The notes under the pieces are model-generated. The model was not told the origin of the DNA, ran no database searches, and saw only the letters and a list, made by a program, of their open reading frames with translations. This document shows, in pieces, positions 2,295 to 49,911 of a DNA stretch of 64,000 nt. The stretch spans positions 3,050-67,049 of the forward strand of contig JAPPAB010000158.1 in assembly GCA_026705765.1 (NCBI GenBank), read 5' to 3'. The position numbers were made by a program, and so were the translations under genes. This stretch comes from Gemmatimonadota bacterium (GTDB lineage Bacteria; Latescibacterota; UBA2968). Position 1 is the stretch's first letter; each line of letters starts with the position of its first letter.

Positions 2295-3785
2295 GTGATT
2301 TTGAAAAGATTTGGTTATGGGCTAATGGTGTGGATGCTATTTGTCTCAAATGTTGAGCCGTCACAGATGGACTCGGTGCTGGTCGATATTATCAAGGGCA
2401 ATTATTACGGGGCAATGGTGCGGTGCGAGGATGTGATCGCAGTTGATTCAACAGCGGCGGATGCGTACCGATTTTTGGGATGGCTTCAGATTGTGACGAG
2501 GCAGGGCGATTTGCAAGAGGTAGGGGAGAATTTGCGGCGGGCCATTCATCTGAAAATTGAGGATGCAGGAGCGCATAACGATCTCGGCGTTGTGTATTTT
2601 TTTCAGCGTAACTACAGCCCGGCGATTGAAGCATTCAGGCAGGCGGTCGCGCTAAGACCCGATGAGACAATGTTTTACCGAAATCTGGGTTTTGTAGCTG
2701 AATTGGCGGGGGCGTATTCCGATGCGGAAGAGGCGTTTCAGGCTGTTTTGGAGCGAGACCCGACGGACGATCTGGCGGTTTACGGATATGGGCTTGCGCT
2801 GGTCAGGCAAGCGCGTTATGACGAGGCGCTGGAGGCATTTCAAAAGGCCGTCCACATGTTTTCGGATCGCAAAGAAGCGCATTTAGAAATTGGACAACTC
2901 ATGATGATGCACGGCAAGTATGCGTCTGCTATATCTGCGTACAAACGGGCGACAAAAATCGATTTTGAAGATCCCAAAGGTCATTATGGACTGGCACAGG
3001 CTTATCAGGTATCGGGCGATTCGCTATCGGCGCGGCATGCGTGGGAGTCGTTTAAGTTTTTTGACGAGCGCCATCGGCATGCGGTTCGAGACCAGTATGT
3101 GTTGCCCGCGCGATTTGATAAGGTAGCCGATTTGCTGGATTTCGGAGACAGGTTTGTGAGATTGGGGCATCACGATAAGGCTATAGGGGTTTATCAGCAA
3201 GCGGTCGCTCTGGTGGAAGATCCAGATTTGCCGTGGCGGTTTAGTCCGGAGGTTCCCGTGGTGTATCTGGCTCTGGGACAGTCCTATCAGGCGTTGGGGG
3301 ATGTAGAGCGAGCGCGGCGGTCTTATGATGCGGCTTTTGCGCTGGGTGAAGGGGGCCTGGTATCTGACGAGGCTTTGAGGCACAGGACAGATATGTTTTT
3401 GTGTGCCGATGGGTTGTCGCGCGATGTGGTGGAGGGATATGAGCGGATTGTGGCTATGGATCCGATTGCCTTTGCCGCGTTCTACATTTACGATCAGATT
3501 AGCCAGGCACAGGCGAAGACGGGAGATCTGAATAAGTGTATTTCGACCTATGAGACCAGAGCAGATCAGGTTGCGTATTCTGCGGGGTTGCTGGTGCGAT
3601 TGGGGGTGGCACATGCGGTGGCGGGAGATATGGACGCGGCAAAGGCGTTGTACGATCAGGTGATTGGGGGGGCGGAAGATCCGCGCGAGTTGTATCTCCA
3701 GTTGTCGGTTCTCTATGGTCGGGCGGGGCGGAAAGCGGAGGCAGAGGCAATGGCGGCAAAAGCATCCGCAGATGTACGCAGATAA
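2295..3785 (+). CDS. exported tetratricopeptide (TPR) repeat protein
   Basis: GTG start just downstream of GGAGGAG. N-terminal hydrophobic signal-like segment and repeated TPR-type helix pairs (A..Y..LG......G....A...F..A..L.P). The last codons (SADVRR) and the TAA stop lie inside decamer repeat A. Confidence 0.8.
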   Translation: MILKRFGYGLMVWMLFVSNVEPSQMDSVLVDIIKGNYYGAMVRCEDVIAVDSTAADAYRFLGWLQIVTRQGDLQEVGENLRRAIHLKIEDAGAHNDLGVVYFFQRNYSPAIEAFRQAVALRPDETMFYRNLGFVAELAGAYSDAEEAFQAVLERDPTDDLAVYGYGLALVRQARYDEALEAFQKAVHMFSDRKEAHLEIGQLMMMHGKYASAISAYKRATKIDFEDPKGHYGLAQAYQVSGDSLSARHAWESFKFFDERHRHAVRDQYVLPARFDKVADLLDFGDRFVRLGHHDKAIGVYQQAVALVEDPDLPWRFSPEVPVVYLALGQSYQALGDVERARRSYDAAFALGEGGLVSDEALRHRTDMFLCADGLSRDVVEGYERIVAMDPIAFAAFYIYDQISQAQAKTGDLNKCISTYETRADQVAYSAGLLVRLGVAHAVAGDMDAAKALYDQVIGGAEDPRELYLQLSVLYGRAGRKAEAEAMAAKASADVRR

Positions 3786-3794
3786 ACGCAGATG
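3764..3794 (+). repeat. decamer array A: ATCC + 3 x GCAGATnnnn
   Basis: GCAGAT occurs at 3768, 3778 and 3788 (exact 10-nt phasing) after an ATCC leader. It overlaps the 3' end and stop codon of the TPR gene. Confidence 0.85.
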
Positions 3795-3819: not shown

Positions 3820-5430
3820 ATGGGAGTATCAGTGATTAGAGTTATTGGCATTCTTTTTTTGTTTTTATGTTCGAGTTCTGTTGCCGCAGAGCAATTTGTG
3901 GAGGTTGCAGAAGCGTCTGGTATATCGTTTGTGCATCGGACCGGTGCGAGGGGGAATTGGCATTATTTGGAGACTATGGGGTCGGGCTGCGCTGTGTTTG
4001 ATGTGGATGGGGATGGGGATTTGGATCTGTATTTTGTCAATGGAGAACACGGGCAGGCGGGCGGCGAGAACGCGCTTTATCGAAACGATGGTGGATTTCG
4101 TTTTTCGGCTGTTCCAGGCGCGCTGGGTGTGGGGTATGGTATGGGGTGTACGGTTGGGGATTATGACAATGATGGCGATCTCGATCTTTATACGACGGGT
4201 TATGATGCCAATGTGCTGTATCAAAATGATGGGCGTGGTGGTTTTGCGGAAAAGAAGGCGGGGGTGGCGGGCGGTGGGTGGTCTGCTGGCGCCACCTTTT
4301 TTGATGCGGATGGGGATGGCGACCTGGATTTGTATGTGGTGCGCTATTTGACGTATGATGTGGAAACCGATCCGGATTGTGAGCGGGTGGGCGTTCGCAC
4401 GTATTGCGATCCGGGCTATTTTGAGGGGGCGCCGGATTTGCTTTATCGGAATGAGGGGAATGGAATATTTACGGATGTTTCCTTTGAGGCGGGTGTGGCG
4501 GATTCTTCGGGCAAAGGGCTTGGGGTGGTGAGTCTGGATTACGATGGGGATGGGGATACCGATCTCTATGTGGCGAATGATACGACGCCAAATTTTTTGT
4601 ATCGCAATGTGGGGGGACGGTTTGAGAATGTAGGGATAGAGGCGGGTGTGGCGTTTAATGCGCAGGGCCGGACACAGGCGGGGATGGGGGTCGATGTGGG
4701 AGATGTAGATGGAGACGGGCGATCAGATATTTTTGTGACGAATTTTTCCTACGAGACCAATGCGATTTATCAGCGTGCGGGGGGCGGATTTTTCATGGAG
4801 GGAAGTGTGTCAACCGGAATTGCCGGGGTGTCTTTGCTGCCTCTGGGATTTGGCACTCATTTTTTTGATTATGACAACGATGGCGATCTGGATCTGTTTG
4901 TGGCAAATGGGCATATTTTCCCAAATGTAAAGGCGTTTTCCAGGGCGGAGTCCTATTTACAAGCGGATCAAATATTTCGCAATGTGGATGGGCGATTTGA
5001 GGTGGTTAATGCGGGCGTTGAAACGCCGGGGGTGAGTCGTGGGTCGGCGATTGGCGATCTGGATGAGGATGGCGATCTGGATCTGGTGGTGTTGCATTCG
5101 GGGCAAAGGGCGCGGGTGTTTCGCAATGAATTTGAGAACTCGGGACACTGGATCGTTGTAAAGCTCGTGGGAGGTATGGAGGGAGCGGAAAGCGGGTTTT
5201 CAAATAGGGACGGGATTGGGGCGGTGGTGCATGTAAGCGCGGGGGGAAAGATCCAGGTGCGTGAGGTTCGGAGTCAGTCGAGCTATTTGTCGGCGAGCGA
5301 TTTGCGGCTTCATTTTGGGCTGGGCAATGCGCGTCGCGTGGATCGAATTGAGGTGCGCTGGGTGAGTGGCCGCGTGCAGGTGTTGGAAGATGTTGAGGTG
5401 GATCGCGTTGTGGTTGTGGAAGAGAATTGA
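3820..5430 (+). CDS. CRTAC1-family protein (FG-GAP/VCBS repeats + C-terminal UnbV/ASPIC domain), secreted
   Basis: Signal peptide (ILFLFLCSSSVAAEQ). Ca-loop repeats DVDGDGDLDLY, DYDNDGDLDLY, DADGDGDLDLY, DYDGDGDTDLY, DVDGDGRSDIF, DYDNDGDLDLF and DLDEDGDLDLV. C-terminal block NRDGIGAVV.V...G.IQVREVRSQSSYLSASDLRLHFGLG....VDRIEVRW.SG. Confidence 0.9.
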   Translation: MGVSVIRVIGILFLFLCSSSVAAEQFVEVAEASGISFVHRTGARGNWHYLETMGSGCAVFDVDGDGDLDLYFVNGEHGQAGGENALYRNDGGFRFSAVPGALGVGYGMGCTVGDYDNDGDLDLYTTGYDANVLYQNDGRGGFAEKKAGVAGGGWSAGATFFDADGDGDLDLYVVRYLTYDVETDPDCERVGVRTYCDPGYFEGAPDLLYRNEGNGIFTDVSFEAGVADSSGKGLGVVSLDYDGDGDTDLYVANDTTPNFLYRNVGGRFENVGIEAGVAFNAQGRTQAGMGVDVGDVDGDGRSDIFVTNFSYETNAIYQRAGGGFFMEGSVSTGIAGVSLLPLGFGTHFFDYDNDGDLDLFVANGHIFPNVKAFSRAESYLQADQIFRNVDGRFEVVNAGVETPGVSRGSAIGDLDEDGDLDLVVLHSGQRARVFRNEFENSGHWIVVKLVGGMEGAESGFSNRDGIGAVVHVSAGGKIQVREVRSQSSYLSASDLRLHFGLGNARRVDRIEVRWVSGRVQVLEDVEVDRVVVVEEN

Positions 5431-7773: not shown

Positions 7774-9906
7774 ATGATGAATCGATGGGTCCTATATCTT
7801 CTATTTTGTTGTCTGTGTCCTATTCCCCTTCAGGGACAAGATACAGCAGAAGAGGCGGTTGAGAGGTTGAGATCTCTGCGAATGGCACGGAATCATAAAG
7901 ATGGATATGTCGAGGGGAAAAAGCTGGTCGAACGGTTTCCGGATAATTTGCATCTGCGCGCCTGGTTTATCCATCACATGGCGGCGGAGAACAAAGAGGA
8001 AGCAGTTGCCGCCGCTGAAGAGATGGTCGCGTCTCCTGAAAATAGTGCGTGGGGTTGGGTCGCGCTTGCGAGCGCACTTAATCGACTTGGTAAAGAGCGC
8101 AGGGATGAGGCGCTTTTAGCCAGTGAAAGAGCCTTAGAGATGTTGCCCGACCATGCGGATGTCATCAATATAAGAGCAGATGTGCTGTATGGAAGTAATA
8201 AAGAGGATGCGATTACCTTTGTAGATGAGTATAAAACGCGGGTCGAGAATCCCGCCAGGCTTCTGGTCGTTAAGGGGAATGCCCTGTACTATACTTCTGA
8301 GAGAGGAAAAAACACTCAAAGATTCGAGGCTTGTCTGAAGGTATTTGCAGAAGCGCGCAAAGCCGATCCCGGTAATGCAAATGCCTATTATCGACCGGCT
8401 TATTATCTGTCTGTGATGCGTCGTTACGATGAAGCCTATCCACTATACCAGAAAGCGGCGCAACTGGCACCCACAGATGCAAGGGTGCATCAGCGGTTCT
8501 GGCGGGTGGTTGAGCGACTTAAAAATAAGTCTGAAGCAGAGAAAATTGCAGAGATTGAGGCTGATGCCGATGCGTTTGTGCAAGCGCGTGGGGGAGATGC
8601 GGCTTCTTTGCTGGCATTGTACAATGCCTATCGAAGTCTGGAACTCGAGGAAAAGAAAAAAGGGGTTGGAGATCGCATCCTCAGTACCTATGGCGAAAGT
8701 GCAGAGGCGGAATGGGTGCTGGTGTATCGCTATCGCGCGATGGAGGAGGATGCTGAAGAAGATTTCCAGGATCTCGAGCAAGAGGAGGCGTATCGAAACT
8801 TGTTGCGGGCGTTTATCGCGCGGTCCCAACACCATAATGATCGACTGCTGGGAGATGCATATCTGAATCTTTTCTTTTCCATTCGGGAGGATTCTACGGT
8901 ATCAGCGAAAGAACTTCTGGATGTGGTACAGGGTATGGTTAAATATGAAAATATCAACCCGCATCTCACATTTCCAAGAGGTGCGATGACGCTGGCGGAA
9001 CGCACGTCGTATTATCGAGAGGCTGAGCAGATTGCCCGGGATGGTGTTGCGGTAGCACAGGAATTTCTGAAAGACCAGAAGAAGTACTACGACTCAGAAG
9101 AAGATTATCAACAAGATATAAACTGGATGACCGGGTTGATGACCGATGCCCTCGGTTGGGTGTTTTTTCAGGAAGGGCGTTTGGAAGATGCCGAGCGAGA
9201 ATTGATGCGCGCTTATGAACTGAATTCCAAAGATGAGGACACGCTTTACCATTTGGGTCAGGTTTATGAGGCGATGGACAACCCAGATCAGGCCGAAGTA
9301 TTTTACAAAATGGGTATAGCCATCCCATCGTCGGGTAAAAATCCCAATGACCAGGCTCTAAAGTCACTTTATTTGAAGCGACACGGGAGTTTGGATGGGT
9401 ACGAAAATTATTTAAAACCTTTAATAGCATCAGATCGAGAAACGCGAAAGCAGGAGGTCCTGTCTTCTCGGATTGAGGCTCCAGAGCCAGCGCTTGCGTT
9501 CAATTTGAAGACTCTAAAGGGTAAGCAAGTATTGCTAACTTCTTTGAAGGGCAAGATCGTGGCGATCAATTTCTGGGGGATATGGTGTGGATGGTGTGTG
9601 AAAGAGATGCCGGAGTTTCAGAATTTGTACGAGCATTACAAGGACGATCCCGATGTGGCGATTTTGACGATTAATAATGATCGCAATCCCGAGTCAGTAC
9701 CGCCGTGGATGGAGAAGAAGGGTTATACTTTCCCGGTTTTGCTCGATGACGGATATGTGAATAAAGCGGGGATTCAGGGCTTTCCCACAACCTGGTTTCT
9801 CAATCGGGAGGGGCAGATTGCGTTTCTAAAGCGGGGATGGACAAAAGAATTGGAGGAGGAATTTGGCTGGCGGATCGAGGCGTTGAGGGGTATTGAGGTA
9901 AAATAA
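7774..9906 (+). CDS. TPR-repeat protein fused to a C-terminal TlpA-like thioredoxin-fold redoxin
   Basis: AAGGAGG RBS, signal peptide and a long TPR-like helical region. The C-terminal ~150 aa has the CxxC motif FWGIWCGWCVKEMPEF and FPTTWFLNREGQIAF, typical of TlpA/ResA-type periplasmic thiol-disulfide oxidoreductases. Stop TAA abuts the next ATG (9907). Confidence 0.85.
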   Translation: MMNRWVLYLLFCCLCPIPLQGQDTAEEAVERLRSLRMARNHKDGYVEGKKLVERFPDNLHLRAWFIHHMAAENKEEAVAAAEEMVASPENSAWGWVALASALNRLGKERRDEALLASERALEMLPDHADVINIRADVLYGSNKEDAITFVDEYKTRVENPARLLVVKGNALYYTSERGKNTQRFEACLKVFAEARKADPGNANAYYRPAYYLSVMRRYDEAYPLYQKAAQLAPTDARVHQRFWRVVERLKNKSEAEKIAEIEADADAFVQARGGDAASLLALYNAYRSLELEEKKKGVGDRILSTYGESAEAEWVLVYRYRAMEEDAEEDFQDLEQEEAYRNLLRAFIARSQHHNDRLLGDAYLNLFFSIREDSTVSAKELLDVVQGMVKYENINPHLTFPRGAMTLAERTSYYREAEQIARDGVAVAQEFLKDQKKYYDSEEDYQQDINWMTGLMTDALGWVFFQEGRLEDAERELMRAYELNSKDEDTLYHLGQVYEAMDNPDQAEVFYKMGIAIPSSGKNPNDQALKSLYLKRHGSLDGYENYLKPLIASDRETRKQEVLSSRIEAPEPALAFNLKTLKGKQVLLTSLKGKIVAINFWGIWCGWCVKEMPEFQNLYEHYKDDPDVAILTINNDRNPESVPPWMEKKGYTFPVLLDDGYVNKAGIQGFPTTWFLNREGQIAFLKRGWTKELEEEFGWRIEALRGIEVK

Positions 9907-34198: not shown

Positions 34199-34244
34199 TA
34201 TCCGCAGATGGACGCAGATGGACGCAGATAGATGCAGATGAAAT
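34199..34244 (+). repeat. decamer array B: TATCC + 4 x GCAGATnnnn
   Basis: GCAGAT occurs at 34204, 34214, 34224 and 34234 (exact 10-nt phasing). The array is intergenic, 88 nt upstream of the ABC exporter start and 23 nt downstream of the DUF1992-like gene's stop. Confidence 0.9.
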
Positions 34245-46929: not shown

Positions 46930-46989
46930 TTTTGGGTCCTTTTCGATCAGGTTTCAGGTAAGCTGCGATCTGATTAGTTGCATAATTGC

Positions 46990-48201
46990 TTACACTTCTG
47001 TTTGATTTAGCCAATATTCCACGGGTGTTGAAAGAAACCGTTCGAGAGAAATCCCGCCCGGACCGACGATTAACATGCGACCTGGTTTGAAAGATTTGGA
47101 GAAAGATTCCAGGCCGGGGAGCGAAGTAGTTGTGCGTCCGCTTTTTACTTCTATTGCCACGAGTTTCTTTCCTTTTCGCAAGACAAAATCTACTTCGCGG
47201 TTGCGCTCCCGCCAATAAAACACTTCACACGTACCGCCAGCGGATGCGTTGACCAGGTGTGCGCCCACTGCGGACTCTGTCAAGCGTCCCCAAAATTCGC
47301 GGTCTGCAAAGGCTTCTGATTGCGTCATGTCAGACAGTGCGGTTATTAGCGCGGTGTTGAAGACTTGAAACTTGGGGCTTGATCCCCGTCGCCGCGCTGT
47401 GTCACCCGCGTATTTATGCAACCCGGTGAGTACGCCAGCACCTGCAAGCAGGTCGAGGTAGTGGGCAAGTGTGGTTGTGTTCCCGGCATCCTGAAGTTGG
47501 CCTATCATTTTTGTGTAGGAAAGTATTTGTCCTGAATAGGCACAACCCAGTTCAAATAGTCGCCGAAGCAGTGCCGGTTTGTCAACGCGGGAAAGCAAAA
47601 GCACGTCGCGCGCGACGGTTGTTTCAATGAGAGAATCTATGATGTAGCGCGACCAGCGGAGCGGTTGTTCTATCAATGGTGCAGCACCTGGATAGGCACC
47701 GTAAAAAAGATATTGGTTCAGATCCCATCCGAAGGCCTCCCGCATTTCGGAAAAGCTCCAATGCGGCATGTGCAGGATTTCAAAACGTCCCGCAAGGCTT
47801 TCTGTCAGTCCATGCCCGATTAAAAGCGGGGCAGAGCCAAGTAATACTGTTTTTACCAATGTTTTTTTGCGGGTGTCTTCATCCCAAAGATACTTGACCA
47901 TTTCAGCCCAATGCGGAACTTTCTGTACTTCATCCAATACGAGTAAGGCGCCTTTTTCTGAACTGGCGGCAAGCAATCGCGCCTCTTCCCATTGGGATTC
48001 AAGCCATCCATTGCCGCGAAGTGTCGGTTCATCTGCACTGGCAAAGTGATATGGCAGTTTGCTCTGGTCAGCGACTTGCAATGCAAGGGTTGTTTTGCCG
48101 ACCTGCCTCGCTCCCGATACGACCTGAATGAATCGCCGGGGTTCTTTCAACCGCCGCGCTAACTCCGCAGCTTGAGGTCTGATGAATATTTCGTTGCTCA
48201 T
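46990..48201 (-). CDS. AAA+ ATPase (AAA_14-like N-domain + DUF4143-like C-domain)
   Basis: RRFIQVVSGARQVGKTTL Walker A and LLVLDEVQ Walker B. The C-terminal half (GAHLVN......VFYWRE...EVDFVL......AIEVK) resembles the PD-(D/E)xK-like DUF4143 module. Confidence 0.8.
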   Translation of the reverse strand: MSNEIFIRPQAAELARRLKEPRRFIQVVSGARQVGKTTLALQVADQSKLPYHFASADEPTLRGNGWLESQWEEARLLAASSEKGALLVLDEVQKVPHWAEMVKYLWDEDTRKKTLVKTVLLGSAPLLIGHGLTESLAGRFEILHMPHWSFSEMREAFGWDLNQYLFYGAYPGAAPLIEQPLRWSRYIIDSLIETTVARDVLLLSRVDKPALLRRLFELGCAYSGQILSYTKMIGQLQDAGNTTTLAHYLDLLAGAGVLTGLHKYAGDTARRRGSSPKFQVFNTALITALSDMTQSEAFADREFWGRLTESAVGAHLVNASAGGTCEVFYWRERNREVDFVLRKGKKLVAIEVKSGRTTTSLPGLESFSKSFKPGRMLIVGPGGISLERFLSTPVEYWLNQTEV

Positions 48202-48204
48202 AGT

Positions 48205-48238
48205 ATTGAGTAATTTTACTCAATGTATTGAGTAAAAT
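48205..48238. promoter_or_regulatory. palindromic operator-like site abutting the ATPase start codon
   Basis: ATTGAGTAA-TT-TTACTCAAT (48205-48224, perfect 9-bp arms) plus a third half-site ATTGAGTAAAAT (48227-48238). It begins 4 nt upstream of the ATG at 48201, where an RBS would be expected. Confidence 0.5.
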
Positions 48239-48260
48239 GTAAAGTTGTGTGGTAAGGATT

Positions 48261-48294
48261 TATCCGCAGATGAACGCAGATGGGCACAGATAAA
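48261..48294 (+). repeat. decamer array C: TATCC + GCAGAT, GCAGAT, ACAGAT units
   Basis: Units at 48266, 48276 and 48286 (10-nt phasing). The array sits at the left edge of the AT-rich segment. Confidence 0.85.
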
Positions 48295-48394
48295 ACCCTT
48301 ATGAAATAGATGGTTAGGTATCTTTAGTAACGAATGCATGACAAATCATTTGGATATTGATCTATCCTGCTATAGCTTGCATCTCGACCCCGTT

Positions 48395-49291
48395 TCACGA
48401 CCTCCCAATCCTTATCTGTCGCTGGCTGGACTGGACCATTTTATTTTTGGAAGCAATTTTTAATGGTTCTGAGTATTTAAGAATGTATTTGAGTTTTCGC
48501 AAATTTCTGCTTTCCAACTCTTTTTTTGTAAACAGTACAAAAAATACTATAAATTCGTCACAGTCGATATATCCCGTGACTTCTTGACAAGGTAACTGAT
48601 CCGAAGTCACTACTCTAATATATGTATTTCTATTATCGGTTCTTTTAGGTGAACGCCGTTCGTTTATACATAAATTTGTATACAGGGCCTCCATGCCTTT
48701 ATTTTGCATTTCAACAAGTTCGTCGATACATGAAGCTTTTTCGTCTTTATGCCAAAAATATAGATACATCCATTCTAAATTTTCTTGAGCTTTTTTTAAA
48801 TCCAAGCCTCGTTGGTAAAGACAAGCGAGGAAGCCTGTTTGTCTATTATTATCGATTACCCAACCAAAGGGGGCAGGTAATAATATGGAATTCTTACCTG
48901 AATACGGGATTGCTATCAAGCCTTGATTATTTTGTAAATCTTCGAAGTTTAACACATCGAGCTCGATCTTCTCAGGCCCATAATGGGCTCGCTTGATTGC
49001 TGCTTCCGAATATCCTTTTTGAGTTATTAATAGCCCCTGATTAGCACCTATGTCTCCTATCATTGAGATGAACGACTCAACACATTTAATATCTACTTTT
49101 CGCGAGAAATACTTTGCATCCACCGCAATCTTGATTGGAAATCCTGCAACCTCATCTTCGATTAGCATATCTACTTGGCGTTCTTTTTTTGAATAGTGGC
49201 CTATAATTTTCGCATCGTAAGTAATTTTCGCTTCAGGGTACATCTGCGCGAAATATTGATATACTTCTTTTTCGTAGTCTTTCCAATTCAT
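48395..49291 (-). CDS. Mrr-cat-like PD-(D/E)xK restriction-endonuclease domain protein with unknown C-terminal domain
   Basis: The N-terminal ~125 aa (WKDYEKEVYQYF......KERQVDMLIED.....IAVDAKYFSRKVDIKCVESF......ANQGLLITQKGYS..A) fits the D...(D/E)xK Mrr catalytic pattern. The gene is conspicuously AT-rich relative to its neighbours. The C-terminal ~170 aa has no recognisable motif. Confidence 0.65.
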   Translation of the reverse strand: MNWKDYEKEVYQYFAQMYPEAKITYDAKIIGHYSKKERQVDMLIEDEVAGFPIKIAVDAKYFSRKVDIKCVESFISMIGDIGANQGLLITQKGYSEAAIKRAHYGPEKIELDVLNFEDLQNNQGLIAIPYSGKNSILLPAPFGWVIDNNRQTGFLACLYQRGLDLKKAQENLEWMYLYFWHKDEKASCIDELVEMQNKGMEALYTNLCINERRSPKRTDNRNTYIRVVTSDQLPCQEVTGYIDCDEFIVFFVLFTKKELESRNLRKLKYILKYSEPLKIASKNKMVQSSQRQIRIGRS

Positions 49292-49405
49292 TTTGTATGT
49301 CCTATAATCAAGATTACGAACAATTTTTGGAAATTGTAATTTTTACCATCGGTAGCAGTTGTTCGGAATTTCCGAATAACTGAATCTCGCTGTAATTCGC
49401 TGTAA

Positions 49406-49855
49406 TCAAAGATGTTTTTCAGATTTATTATCCGCAGATGGGCGCAGATTAAACACCAGCCTTTTGTATTCCAGTCTCGCAGCACCAAAATTGATGAGCA
49501 GAGCTTTGTTCAAGCCTGATGCCTTGAGGTAATGAATAACTTGAGCCTCTTCAACACCGGACAATTTTTGCAAAGCCTTTAATTCGACGATCACAGAATT
49601 AAAACAAAGAAAATCCACTTGATAATAGGATTTCAGCACCTGCCCCTTATAACATATTTCCAACTTCTTTTCCCGAACATAAGGCACCCCCCGCAACAAA
49701 AACTCCTGCTCTAATGCTTCCTGATAAATCGCCTCAAGAAAACCACACCCCAACTCATTATGCACCGCCATAGCAGCCCCTATAACCGCATAAGTCTTCT
49801 CATCTCTCCTACTATCAGCCCTTCTCTGTTTTCTGTTTAAATTCCTCGCCTTCAT
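49406..49855 (-). CDS. GxxExxY protein (PD-(D/E)xK nuclease superfamily, TIGR04256-like)
   Basis: [29 protein letters not shown] contains the GxxExxY motif, and [13 protein letters not shown] supplies the D/ExK core. The C-terminal tail NLRPSADN is encoded by decamer array D. Confidence 0.8.
49429..49453 (+). repeat. decamer array D: TATCC + 2 x GCAGATnnnn
   Basis: GCAGAT at 49434 and 49444, inside the 3' end of the GxxExxY gene. A separate perfect 10-nt tandem TCGCTGTAAT x2 lies at 49387-49406. Confidence 0.8.
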
Positions 49856-49880
49856 CTATAATCCTTTCGATCTTGCCTTT

Positions 49881-49911
49881 CATCTGCGTTAATCTGCGTA
49901 ATCTGCGGATC
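49881..49911 (-). repeat. decamer array E (inverted orientation): ATCC + 3 x GCAGATnn(n)
   Basis: The + strand reads CATCTGCGTTAATCTGCGTAATCTGCGGAT, with ATCTGC at 49882, 49892 and 49901 (spacing 10 and 9). It lies 26 nt upstream of the GxxExxY start. Confidence 0.85.

Follow-up and report, generated by a model that had tools for sequence, protein, structure and literature searches.

Three Nuclease and ATPase Genes as the Probable Remnant of a Type I Restriction-Modification Defence Island, and the Heptad Arrays Around One of Them

Introduction

Genes with a role in defence are known to be embedded in Type I restriction-modification (R-M) operons, for example PrrC and TgvAB of Vibrio cholerae VPI-2 (PMC11411939), and the PDCs were defined from genes located within BREX, DISARM and Type I R-M systems (10.1101/2024.01.29.577857). 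One of these, PDC-S01, unites an ATPase with a PD-(D/E)xK domain in a very common single-gene candidate for which validation is pending (PMC12988326), and two domain families of importance here, DUF4143 and PDDEXK_3, were listed as being of unknown function in a survey of 2012 (PMC3424549). Here we describe an islet of three genes, encoding an AAA_14 + DUF4143 ATPase, an Mrr-type nuclease and a GxxExxY nuclease, which occupies positions 46990-49911 of a 64-kb stretch of contig JAPPAB010000158.1 (assembly GCA_026705765.1); the whole stretch is referred to as the window. The host genome is probably that of a sponge-associated member of the Latescibacterota, and the sister genomes with which it was compared are probably Latescibacterota sponge symbionts. 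We read the islet, with a probability of about 0.72, as the R-M-less remnant of a horizontally acquired Type I R-M defence island at a strain-variable hotspot.

With the embedded passengers of R-M operons (PrrC, TgvAB and the PDCs) the locus shares the arrangement seen in its sister genomes, where genes lie between hsdM/hsdS and hsdR, and the ATPase is itself a candidate of this kind. The difference is that the passengers in the window would have outlived an R-M host that has vanished, and that the Mrr and GxxExxY families stand outside PADLOC v2. As passengers of a Type I R-M operon, the genes of the islet add a new case to a known category, and the islet is in itself of modest interest. The second gene is related to the Mrr or Type IV restriction endonucleases (PF04471), with which it shares the N-terminal Mrr_cat fold and the D...D-x-K residues, however, the DNA-recognition part is replaced here by a predicted PsbP/Mog1-like sandwich (plus a TPR domain in long forms) and, unlike those enzymes, the protein has no winged-helix or SRA-type reader domain.

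For the GxxExxY gene, which lies between inverted arrays of a short repeat, there are two described counterparts. REPIN-RAYT systems also consist of a small nuclease gene between inverted short repeats, with gene-less doublets and solo copies dispersed (PMC3116915, PMC3337134), but their protein is an HUH (Y1) tyrosine transposase rather than a PD-(D/E)xK protein (PDDEXK_3, Cas4/RecB-like), their repeat is a hairpin REP rather than a tandem heptad array, and REPs are lineage-specific whereas the same heptad is found here over approximately 20 phyla. Terminal inverted repeat (TIR) transposons and miniature inverted-repeat transposable elements (MITEs) are also similar in that the GxxExxY unit looks autonomous at a length of ~420 bp, ends in inverted repeats of ~26-30 bp and has gene-less derivatives of 70-290 bp, however, it comes without a recognised transposase or target-site duplication and is rare in viral contigs. 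The unit fails the defining protein feature of both REPIN-RAYT and TIR elements.

Loci and Comparisons

The close island relatives of the islet are the loci L006, L007 and L008, and L012 and L023 were included as further related loci. The GxxExxY family was surveyed over 80 genome loci from ~20 phyla (L012-L091) and the Mrr family over 80 metagenome loci (L092-L171), with 2 kb or more of downstream sequence available at 34 of them. Mrr architectures were counted over L092-L171 plus L006-L011, and the conservation of catalytic columns in Mrr was scored over 90 sequences. R-M genes were sought by tblastn with the HsdM, HsdS, HsdR and YgjP proteins of L008 as queries. The features of the window are collected in Table 1.

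Table 1. Genes, arrays, palindromes and junctions of the window discussed in the text.
Feature	Position	Strand	Description
ATPase stop/PhyH upstream junction	46958..46989		L007 has array-hsdR-YgjP (~4 kb) here
AAA_14 + DUF4143 ATPase-nuclease	46990..48201	-	403 aa, intact; Pfam AAA_14 6e-24, DUF4143 3e-28
Overlapping palindromes	48194..48238		Type TACTCAAT-nn-ATTGAGTA, just 5' of and across the ATPase start codon
Solo array with ~30-nt conserved flank (AAAACCCTTATGAAATAGATGGTT)	48262..48325	+	Three heptads, 48262-48291
Mrr_cat short-form nuclease	48395..49291	-	298 aa; Mrr_cat (1-~115) and predicted PsbP/Mog1-like alpha/beta sandwich (~120-280)
Non-coding segment between GxxExxY unit and Mrr gene	49333..49421		Holds TTCGGAAtTTCCGAA palindrome; recurs elsewhere in sister islands
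Complete GxxExxY unit	49430..49910	-	Gene 49406-49855, 149 aa; PDDEXK_3 2e-38, TIGR04256 1e-40
Solo array	3767..3793	+	Overlaps 3' end and stop codon of a TPR-protein gene (...ASADVRR*)
Solo array, four heptads	34203..34239	+	Intergenic between two minus-strand genes

A Type I R-M Island at the Same Site in Sister Genomes

The three open reading frames (ORFs) of the islet, which by Pfam hold AAA_14 and DUF4143, Mrr_cat (residues 1-111) and PDDEXK_3 respectively, lie on the minus strand between metabolic operons. At the same sulfatase/PhyH site sister genomes hold a Type I R-M island, and the setting is defence-related, in keeping with the preliminary description, which had seen in these genes a candidate defence or selfish cassette. 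The order in L007 is sulfatase-sulfatase-[hsdS'-hsdM-RhuM-small ORFs-hsdS-Mrr(283)-ATPase-hsdR-YgjP]-PhyH and that in L006 is sulfatase-[hsdS'-hsdM-GxxExxY-small ORFs-hsdS-Mrr(284)-ATPase fragment-hsdR-YgjP]-Fic-SDR-Peripla_BP, both on long or complete contigs, with flanking genes that are 88-93% identical to those of the window at the DNA level. L008 has hsdM-GxxExxY-...-hsdS-Mrr-TPR(465)-ATPase-hsdR-YgjP at a different chromosomal site. None of hsdM, hsdS, hsdR and YgjP was detected in the 64-kb window. An identical Mrr protein is found on contigs of several sponge-metagenome samples, with the three-gene arrangement every time, and the R-M-less arrangement was seen in five samples.

The synonymous divergence (dS) of the Mrr genes gives the tree ((L006,L007),window),L008, and because the R-M genes stand in a single order at all three other loci, one lineage-specific loss of R-M is the most parsimonious account. 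The ancestral site would have had the order hsdS'-hsdM-(GxxExxY)-(small ORFs)-hsdS-Mrr-(ATPase)-hsdR-YgjP, at a hotspot that lies between the sulfatase pair and the PhyH/SDR/sugar-binding operon, and the window lineage would have dropped every R-M gene while retaining the three embedded genes. At one border, L006 and L007 have an array and the first ~25 nt of a window-type GxxExxY ORF (ATGAAGGCGAGG...) right behind the sulfatase; at the other, homology between the window and L007 restarts at AATCAG, directly after the YgjP stop codon in both L007 and L006. The same junctions could be read in the opposite direction, with the three-gene state being older and R-M modules inserted later at array-marked junctions in the sister genomes. 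The GxxExxY 5' stub behind the sulfatase could then be what is left of an older GxxExxY gene into which the R-M block was inserted, the ATPase/PhyH junction of the window is clean, and arrays adjoin hsdR, hsdM and YgjP in the relatives. Such accretion is improbable, however, as the order hsdM..GxxExxY..hsdS-Mrr-ATPase-hsdR-YgjP would have to arise repeatedly, including in L008 at its other site and in L012 from the Nitrospirales, and L008, which has R-M genes, is the outgroup by Mrr dS.

A foreign origin of the islet DNA, which had been proposed from its visible AT-richness, is supported by composition and by homology. Windowed guanine plus cytosine (GC) content is 0.33-0.40 over 48300-49500 versus 0.50-0.59 in the flanks, and positions 48300-49400, with a GC content of 0.366, form the lowest 1-kb stretch of the window (z = -4.2) and the most deviant one in tetranucleotide usage (distance 0.047 versus 0.026 ± 0.004, ~5 standard deviations off the mean). 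The Mrr gene (0.369) and the GxxExxY gene (0.422) deviate whereas the ATPase gene (0.512) is close to the window mean of 0.521. Vibrio, Alteromonas, Ekhidna and Bacteroidales have homologues of the Mrr protein (44-60% identity), and among named genomes, metagenome-assembled genomes (MAGs) of Candidatus Latescibacterota come closest in their GxxExxY and hsdM genes. As first described, no integrase or transposase gene is present among the ORFs of 44-53 kb, and a tRNA-linked integration site is lacking since no tRNA lies near the islet (the tRNAs of the window are only at 62.5 kb).

Several further observations concern the sister islands. The island of L012, a Nitrospirales MAG, is related to that of the Latescibacterota loci L008, L013 and L023, with 77% identity in HsdM, 72% identity in the ATPase and GxxExxY right after hsdM, which suggests that island and passengers may have been transferred between phyla. 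Next to the island, L006 (13818-15134, minus strand) and L007 (15633-16852, minus strand) have a Fic-domain gene that the window is without, and in L006 it stands in place of PhyH; its presence and absence indicate that the hotspot varies beyond the R-M block. Between hsdM and hsdS, small ORFs that are partly duplicated within a locus are found at L006 4843-6480, L007 4883-6222 and L008 2756-4022, and some of them look like toxin-antitoxin genes (Gp49/HigB-like in L006, dnstrm_HI1420 in L008).

Independent Genes Rather Than One System

The ATPase matches PADLOC profile PDLC04791 of PDC-S01 over its whole length (E = 6e-175), with residues 6-397 aligned to positions 2-393 of the 395 in the model, and is a full-length instance of this single-gene defence candidate with the same AAA_14 + DUF4143 composition and no structural difference from it. 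Its motifs are legible, with a Walker A (GARQVGKTT), a Walker B (LVLDEVQ) and a C-terminal EVDFVL...AIEVKSG; a sequence search of the PDB with this protein returned no match. The gene is under strong purifying selection, with a ratio of non-synonymous to synonymous substitution (dN/dS) of 0.09-0.14 versus L007 and L008, and in relatives it is embedded between hsdS/Mrr and hsdR (L007, L008) or near hsdM/hsdS (L012). It may act as a stand-alone defence gene. In L007 (8918-10735) the ATPase ORF has an N-terminal extension of ~200 aa (MQNIDFSQ...GFEELVCQLARL...) where the TPR region of Mrr would be.

The preliminary description had proposed that ATPase and nuclease form one system on a repeat-bounded cassette, in a combination that it did not recognise. 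The first part of this was not supported. Mrr homologues of Vibrio, Ekhidna and Bacteroidales stand solitary among housekeeping genes with no ATPase or R-M neighbour, and among the 80 metagenome loci of the Mrr family an AAA_14/DUF4143 or GxxExxY neighbour was found at none in a tblastn screen that very distant AAA_14 proteins could escape, while hsdM is nearby at three. The relatives of the islet carry varied subsets of the genes, namely Mrr with a broken ATPase in L006, the ATPase without Mrr in L012, and neither of the two in L023, and the arrays that seemed to bound a cassette differ in origin. The combination finds its explanation in passengers of a Type I R-M operon after loss of the R-M genes. 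The evidence says that the three genes are independent single-gene units and not subunits of one machine, and each remaining gene may act alone.

That the ATPase and the Mrr nuclease, perhaps with GxxExxY, constitute one new anti-phage system on an array-bordered, array-recombining cassette is accordingly the least probable account of the locus, and we regard it as very unlikely. It could draw on the three genes sharing a strand with short gaps, on same-orientation arrays either side of the Mrr gene, and on the adjacency of Mrr and ATPase in the window, L007 and L008, the last of which has a 14-nt overlap between its full-length Mrr-TPR gene and its ATPase gene. Against it stand the lack of co-occurrence outside this lineage and the single genes without a partner described above, the status of PDC-S01 as a catalogued single-gene candidate (PMC12988326), the identity of one "bounding" array as an end of the GxxExxY unit, and the absence of any array between Mrr and ATPase in L007 and L008.

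A number of points nonetheless count against the reading of the islet as an R-M-less remnant with independent passengers. The adjacency and the 14-nt overlap make co-transcription of Mrr and ATPase, and some functional coupling in this lineage, possible, and the ATPase-neighbour screen has the reach stated above. The direction of loss relies on parsimony over four loci with no dated tree, and the ATPase/PhyH junction bears no array scar. The word "remnant" overstates decay, with three ORFs that are intact and under purifying selection. Finally, the activity of each protein is putative, and PDC-S01 itself awaits validation.

The Mrr-Type Nuclease

The Mrr_cat domain scores 34.7 bits against a Pfam cut-off of 21, and its catalytic residues are in place: D41 and K60 are invariant in the family, E45, D58 and E72 show conservation of 90% or more, and the window protein keeps them all. 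It had been described as a PD-(D/E)xK domain fused to an unknown C-terminal domain of ~170 aa; the fusion stands, whereas for the second domain structure prediction gives a PsbP/Mog1-like sandwich. The AF2 model has an overall confidence (pLDDT) of 88.8, with residues 282-298 below 50. In Foldseek, PsbP is the best match to the second domain (E 6e-5 to 1e-3, target TM 0.43-0.60), followed by weaker sandwich matches to MTC28, LpqN, DcrB and EagT6/SciW, and we consider a PsbP-like sandwich moderately supported by the model. The search with this protein also retrieves the Mrr-type domains of LlaBIII and MspJI. The PsbP-like part, with or without TPR, is more suggestive of a sensory module than of a DNA reader, and this domain may sense a ligand or a protein.

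The nearest relatives (64-84% identity) are ~460 aa long and end in a C-terminal TPR domain (profile versus PDB E = 3e-22). The window protein, which stops at alignment column ~310, has lost this domain; the copies of the window, L006 and L007 all stop at the domain border. The final ~17 residues of the window protein are new and disordered, and no TPR remnant was found in the DNA downstream of the gene. In the wider family, 37 loci have a fused TPR and 49 have none detected, a count that includes some ORFs truncated where the contig stops; at least 22 short-form loci have at least 1 kb of downstream sequence and no TPR ORF. A separate, split TPR gene was not found in short-form loci. We considered whether the short form is a mere pseudogene and rejected this, as the two-domain form is common in the family and dN/dS among short copies is 0.32-0.41. 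The short form may instead be a still active solitary nuclease that works in the style of Type IV restriction or as a sensor-effector. Membership in the PADLOC families PDC-S02 or mREase_IV was also rejected, with short and full-length forms giving only weak nuclease-core matches (1e-4 to 3e-6 for PDC-S02 and 4e-4 for mREase_IV); beyond these, the Mrr_cat + PsbP-like family is not represented in PADLOC v2.

Palindromes and Non-Coding Segments

The two palindromes reported upstream of the Mrr gene exist (CAATTT-ttgg-AAATTG at 49321-49336 and TTCGGAA-t-TTCCGAA at 49362-49376), but with arms of 6-7 nt in AT-rich DNA they are not above chance. The palindrome a little upstream of the ATPase start codon is the stronger one, with arms of 12 nt (48213-48224 and 48227-48238) that are 100% complementary and conserved in the L006 copy, and the overlapping palindromes at this start codon are operator-like in appearance. 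By blastn, DNA of the segment between the GxxExxY unit and the Mrr gene is matched in sister islands (window 49387-49335 to L006 4391-4443 at 92%, and window 49421-49333 to L007 4643-4731 at 73%). An Rfam scan of 46-51 kb at E <= 1 gave no match, and promoter-like sites were found at chance level in a promoter scan (6 versus 5.4 expected).

The GxxExxY Unit and its Heptad Arrays

The arrays that were noted around the nuclease genes consist of CGCAGAT heptads with a period of 9-10 bp and ATC in front. They are found where they had been placed, at 48262-48291 (+), 49430-49449 (+) and 49882-49910 (-), and form a same-orientation pair around the Mrr gene and an inverted pair around the GxxExxY gene. 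A two-heptad pattern has 10 matches in the window versus 1.14 expected, a number that none of 100 shuffles reached, and of five arrays in total three lie inside the 3-kb islet.

The GxxExxY protein scores 138.6 bits against TIGR04256 (cut-off 35), and its residues are intact at the invariant columns (G38xxE41xxY44, D81 and E91-x-K93). Its structural model shows a generic Cas4/RecB-like nuclease core, with Cas4 SSO0001, Bax1 and RecE being closest in Foldseek (E >= 1e-3), and no PDB match was obtained by sequence. The gene is associated with arrays well beyond the window: across the 80 genome loci a CGCAGAT array is present on the 5' side at 64, an ATCTGCG array on the 3' side at 62 and both of them at 56, set against a background of 0.136 arrays per kb. 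A typical unit has the termini ATCCGCAGAT…ATCTGCGGAT around a nuclease of ~125 aa, and the canonical form has three heptads per end and 362-378 bp between the arrays. The window unit has the termini ATCCGCAGAT...ATCTGCGGAT of 29 canonical units, with three heptads at its 5' end (49882-49910) and two at its 3' end (49430-49449), where they encode the protein tail NLRPSAD. The arrays are in fact frequently translated, with 85 of the 120 best homologues ending in ...NLRxSAxSAD, which is a translated ATCTGCG array, and many homologues starting with PQ(I/M)TQMxAD, a translated CGCAGAT array. No description of the heptad arrays was found in the searchable full-text literature on GxxExxY, PDDEXK_3 or the heptad itself. 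The protein may recognise its own arrays.

The units are also found in other forms. Gene-less mini units of 70-290 bp with the same inverted arrays occur three times at L087 5694-6959 (80-90% identity) and twice at L020 2976-6615 (97%), and further at L054 912-1296 and L041 3452-3713, and three tandem identical full units lie at L045 5972-7279; this pattern resembles that of MITEs or REPINs. A hairpin-plus-array unit (GAAAAAAACGCGAGTAATTTGAGCGTTTTT followed by CGCAGAT heptads) is present three times in L006 (981-1027, 3809-3875 and 4320-4366), with one copy inserted in the 3' end of GxxExxY. In viral contigs only two weak GxxExxY loci were seen. The hsdM gene lies within 6 kb of GxxExxY at 13 of the 80 loci and its stop codon is often inside an array (...ATC CGC AGA TGA; L006 3652-3660, L008 2300-2308, L013, L014, L023 and L012), whereas L007, which has no GxxExxY unit here, has a different hsdM end that overlaps the RhuM start codon (4440-4465). 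The island of L006 contains eight arrays, and in the sister islands arrays stand in nearly every intergenic gap.

In and around the islet, the arrays would be ends or derivatives of the GxxExxY unit and would mark points at which modules were gained or lost between genomes. The two arrays flanking Mrr are of different origin, one of them closing the GxxExxY unit as its inverted 3' end, the other being a solo array with its 30-nt flank. The latter sits where TPR-coding Mrr DNA is missing; L006 has two copies of this array with its flank (8995-9021 and 9805-9830), and L007 and L008 have none between Mrr and ATPase. The earlier suggestion that the arrays are themselves the substrate of recombination or insertion finds some support in that arrays coincide with whole-module differences between genomes and stand at module borders, however, simple recombination between arrays is insufficient. 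We rejected it as an explanation for all three deletions, with the ATPase/PhyH junction having no array and the GxxExxY/Mrr junction having an extra shared segment. It may rather be that array-rich DNA favours rearrangement.

We tentatively propose, as a possibility on which we would not yet insist, that the GxxExxY gene and its arrays are an undescribed repeat-plus-nuclease element, selfish or domesticated, with a logic like that of REPIN-RAYT but with a PD-(D/E)xK nuclease at its core. Such an element, common to ~20 bacterial phyla, would have left mini copies and solo arrays, would prefer gene ends in R-M operons, even giving hsdM its stop codon, and would provide arrays as sites for the shuffling, deletion and truncation of defence modules, with the losses of R-M and of the Mrr TPR domain in the window as examples. 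It is rather doubtful, in our view, that the arrays play no part in rearrangement or mobility and are cis-regulatory or RNA signals of the GxxExxY gene (an autoregulation operator or a long-range 5'/3' stem) in intergenic DNA that tolerates breakpoints. There is perfect complementarity between the termini ATCCGCAGAT and ATCTGCGGAT, which sometimes co-vary (L079, L089 and L067), the ~10-bp spacing fits a DNA-binding protein, no target-site duplication is seen at 29 unit borders, and neither a transposase or integrase nor a nearby tRNA is present, all of which suits a regulatory role. This role is at odds, however, with the near-identical gene-less mini units of L087 and L020, the tandem full units of L045, the solo arrays at 3767 and 34203 of the window, remote from all GxxExxY genes, and filled and empty hsdM 3' ends that differ exactly at the array border. 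Spacers at the two ends of one unit are 47% identical versus 34% between units, a value that none of 2000 shuffles reached. The spacers are not conserved, therefore the heptads are what is kept, and a continuous 5'/3' stem was rejected as a conserved feature.

Implications

Read as the remnant of an R-M island, the islet is an example of defence-island decay in which the large R-M genes would have been lost while the small embedded nuclease genes stay intact under selection. It also serves as a caution, in that neighbouring ATPase and nuclease genes should not be read as one system. The Mrr_cat + PsbP-like proteins, with or without TPR, come forward as an uncatalogued family of solitary nucleases that gains "guilt-by-embedding" support. 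It is the repeat-nuclease unit that deserves further study. If the GxxExxY nuclease does recognise its own arrays, nuclease and repeat would form a partnership of a new kind, which would offer a concrete mechanism for the turnover of modules in R-M loci.

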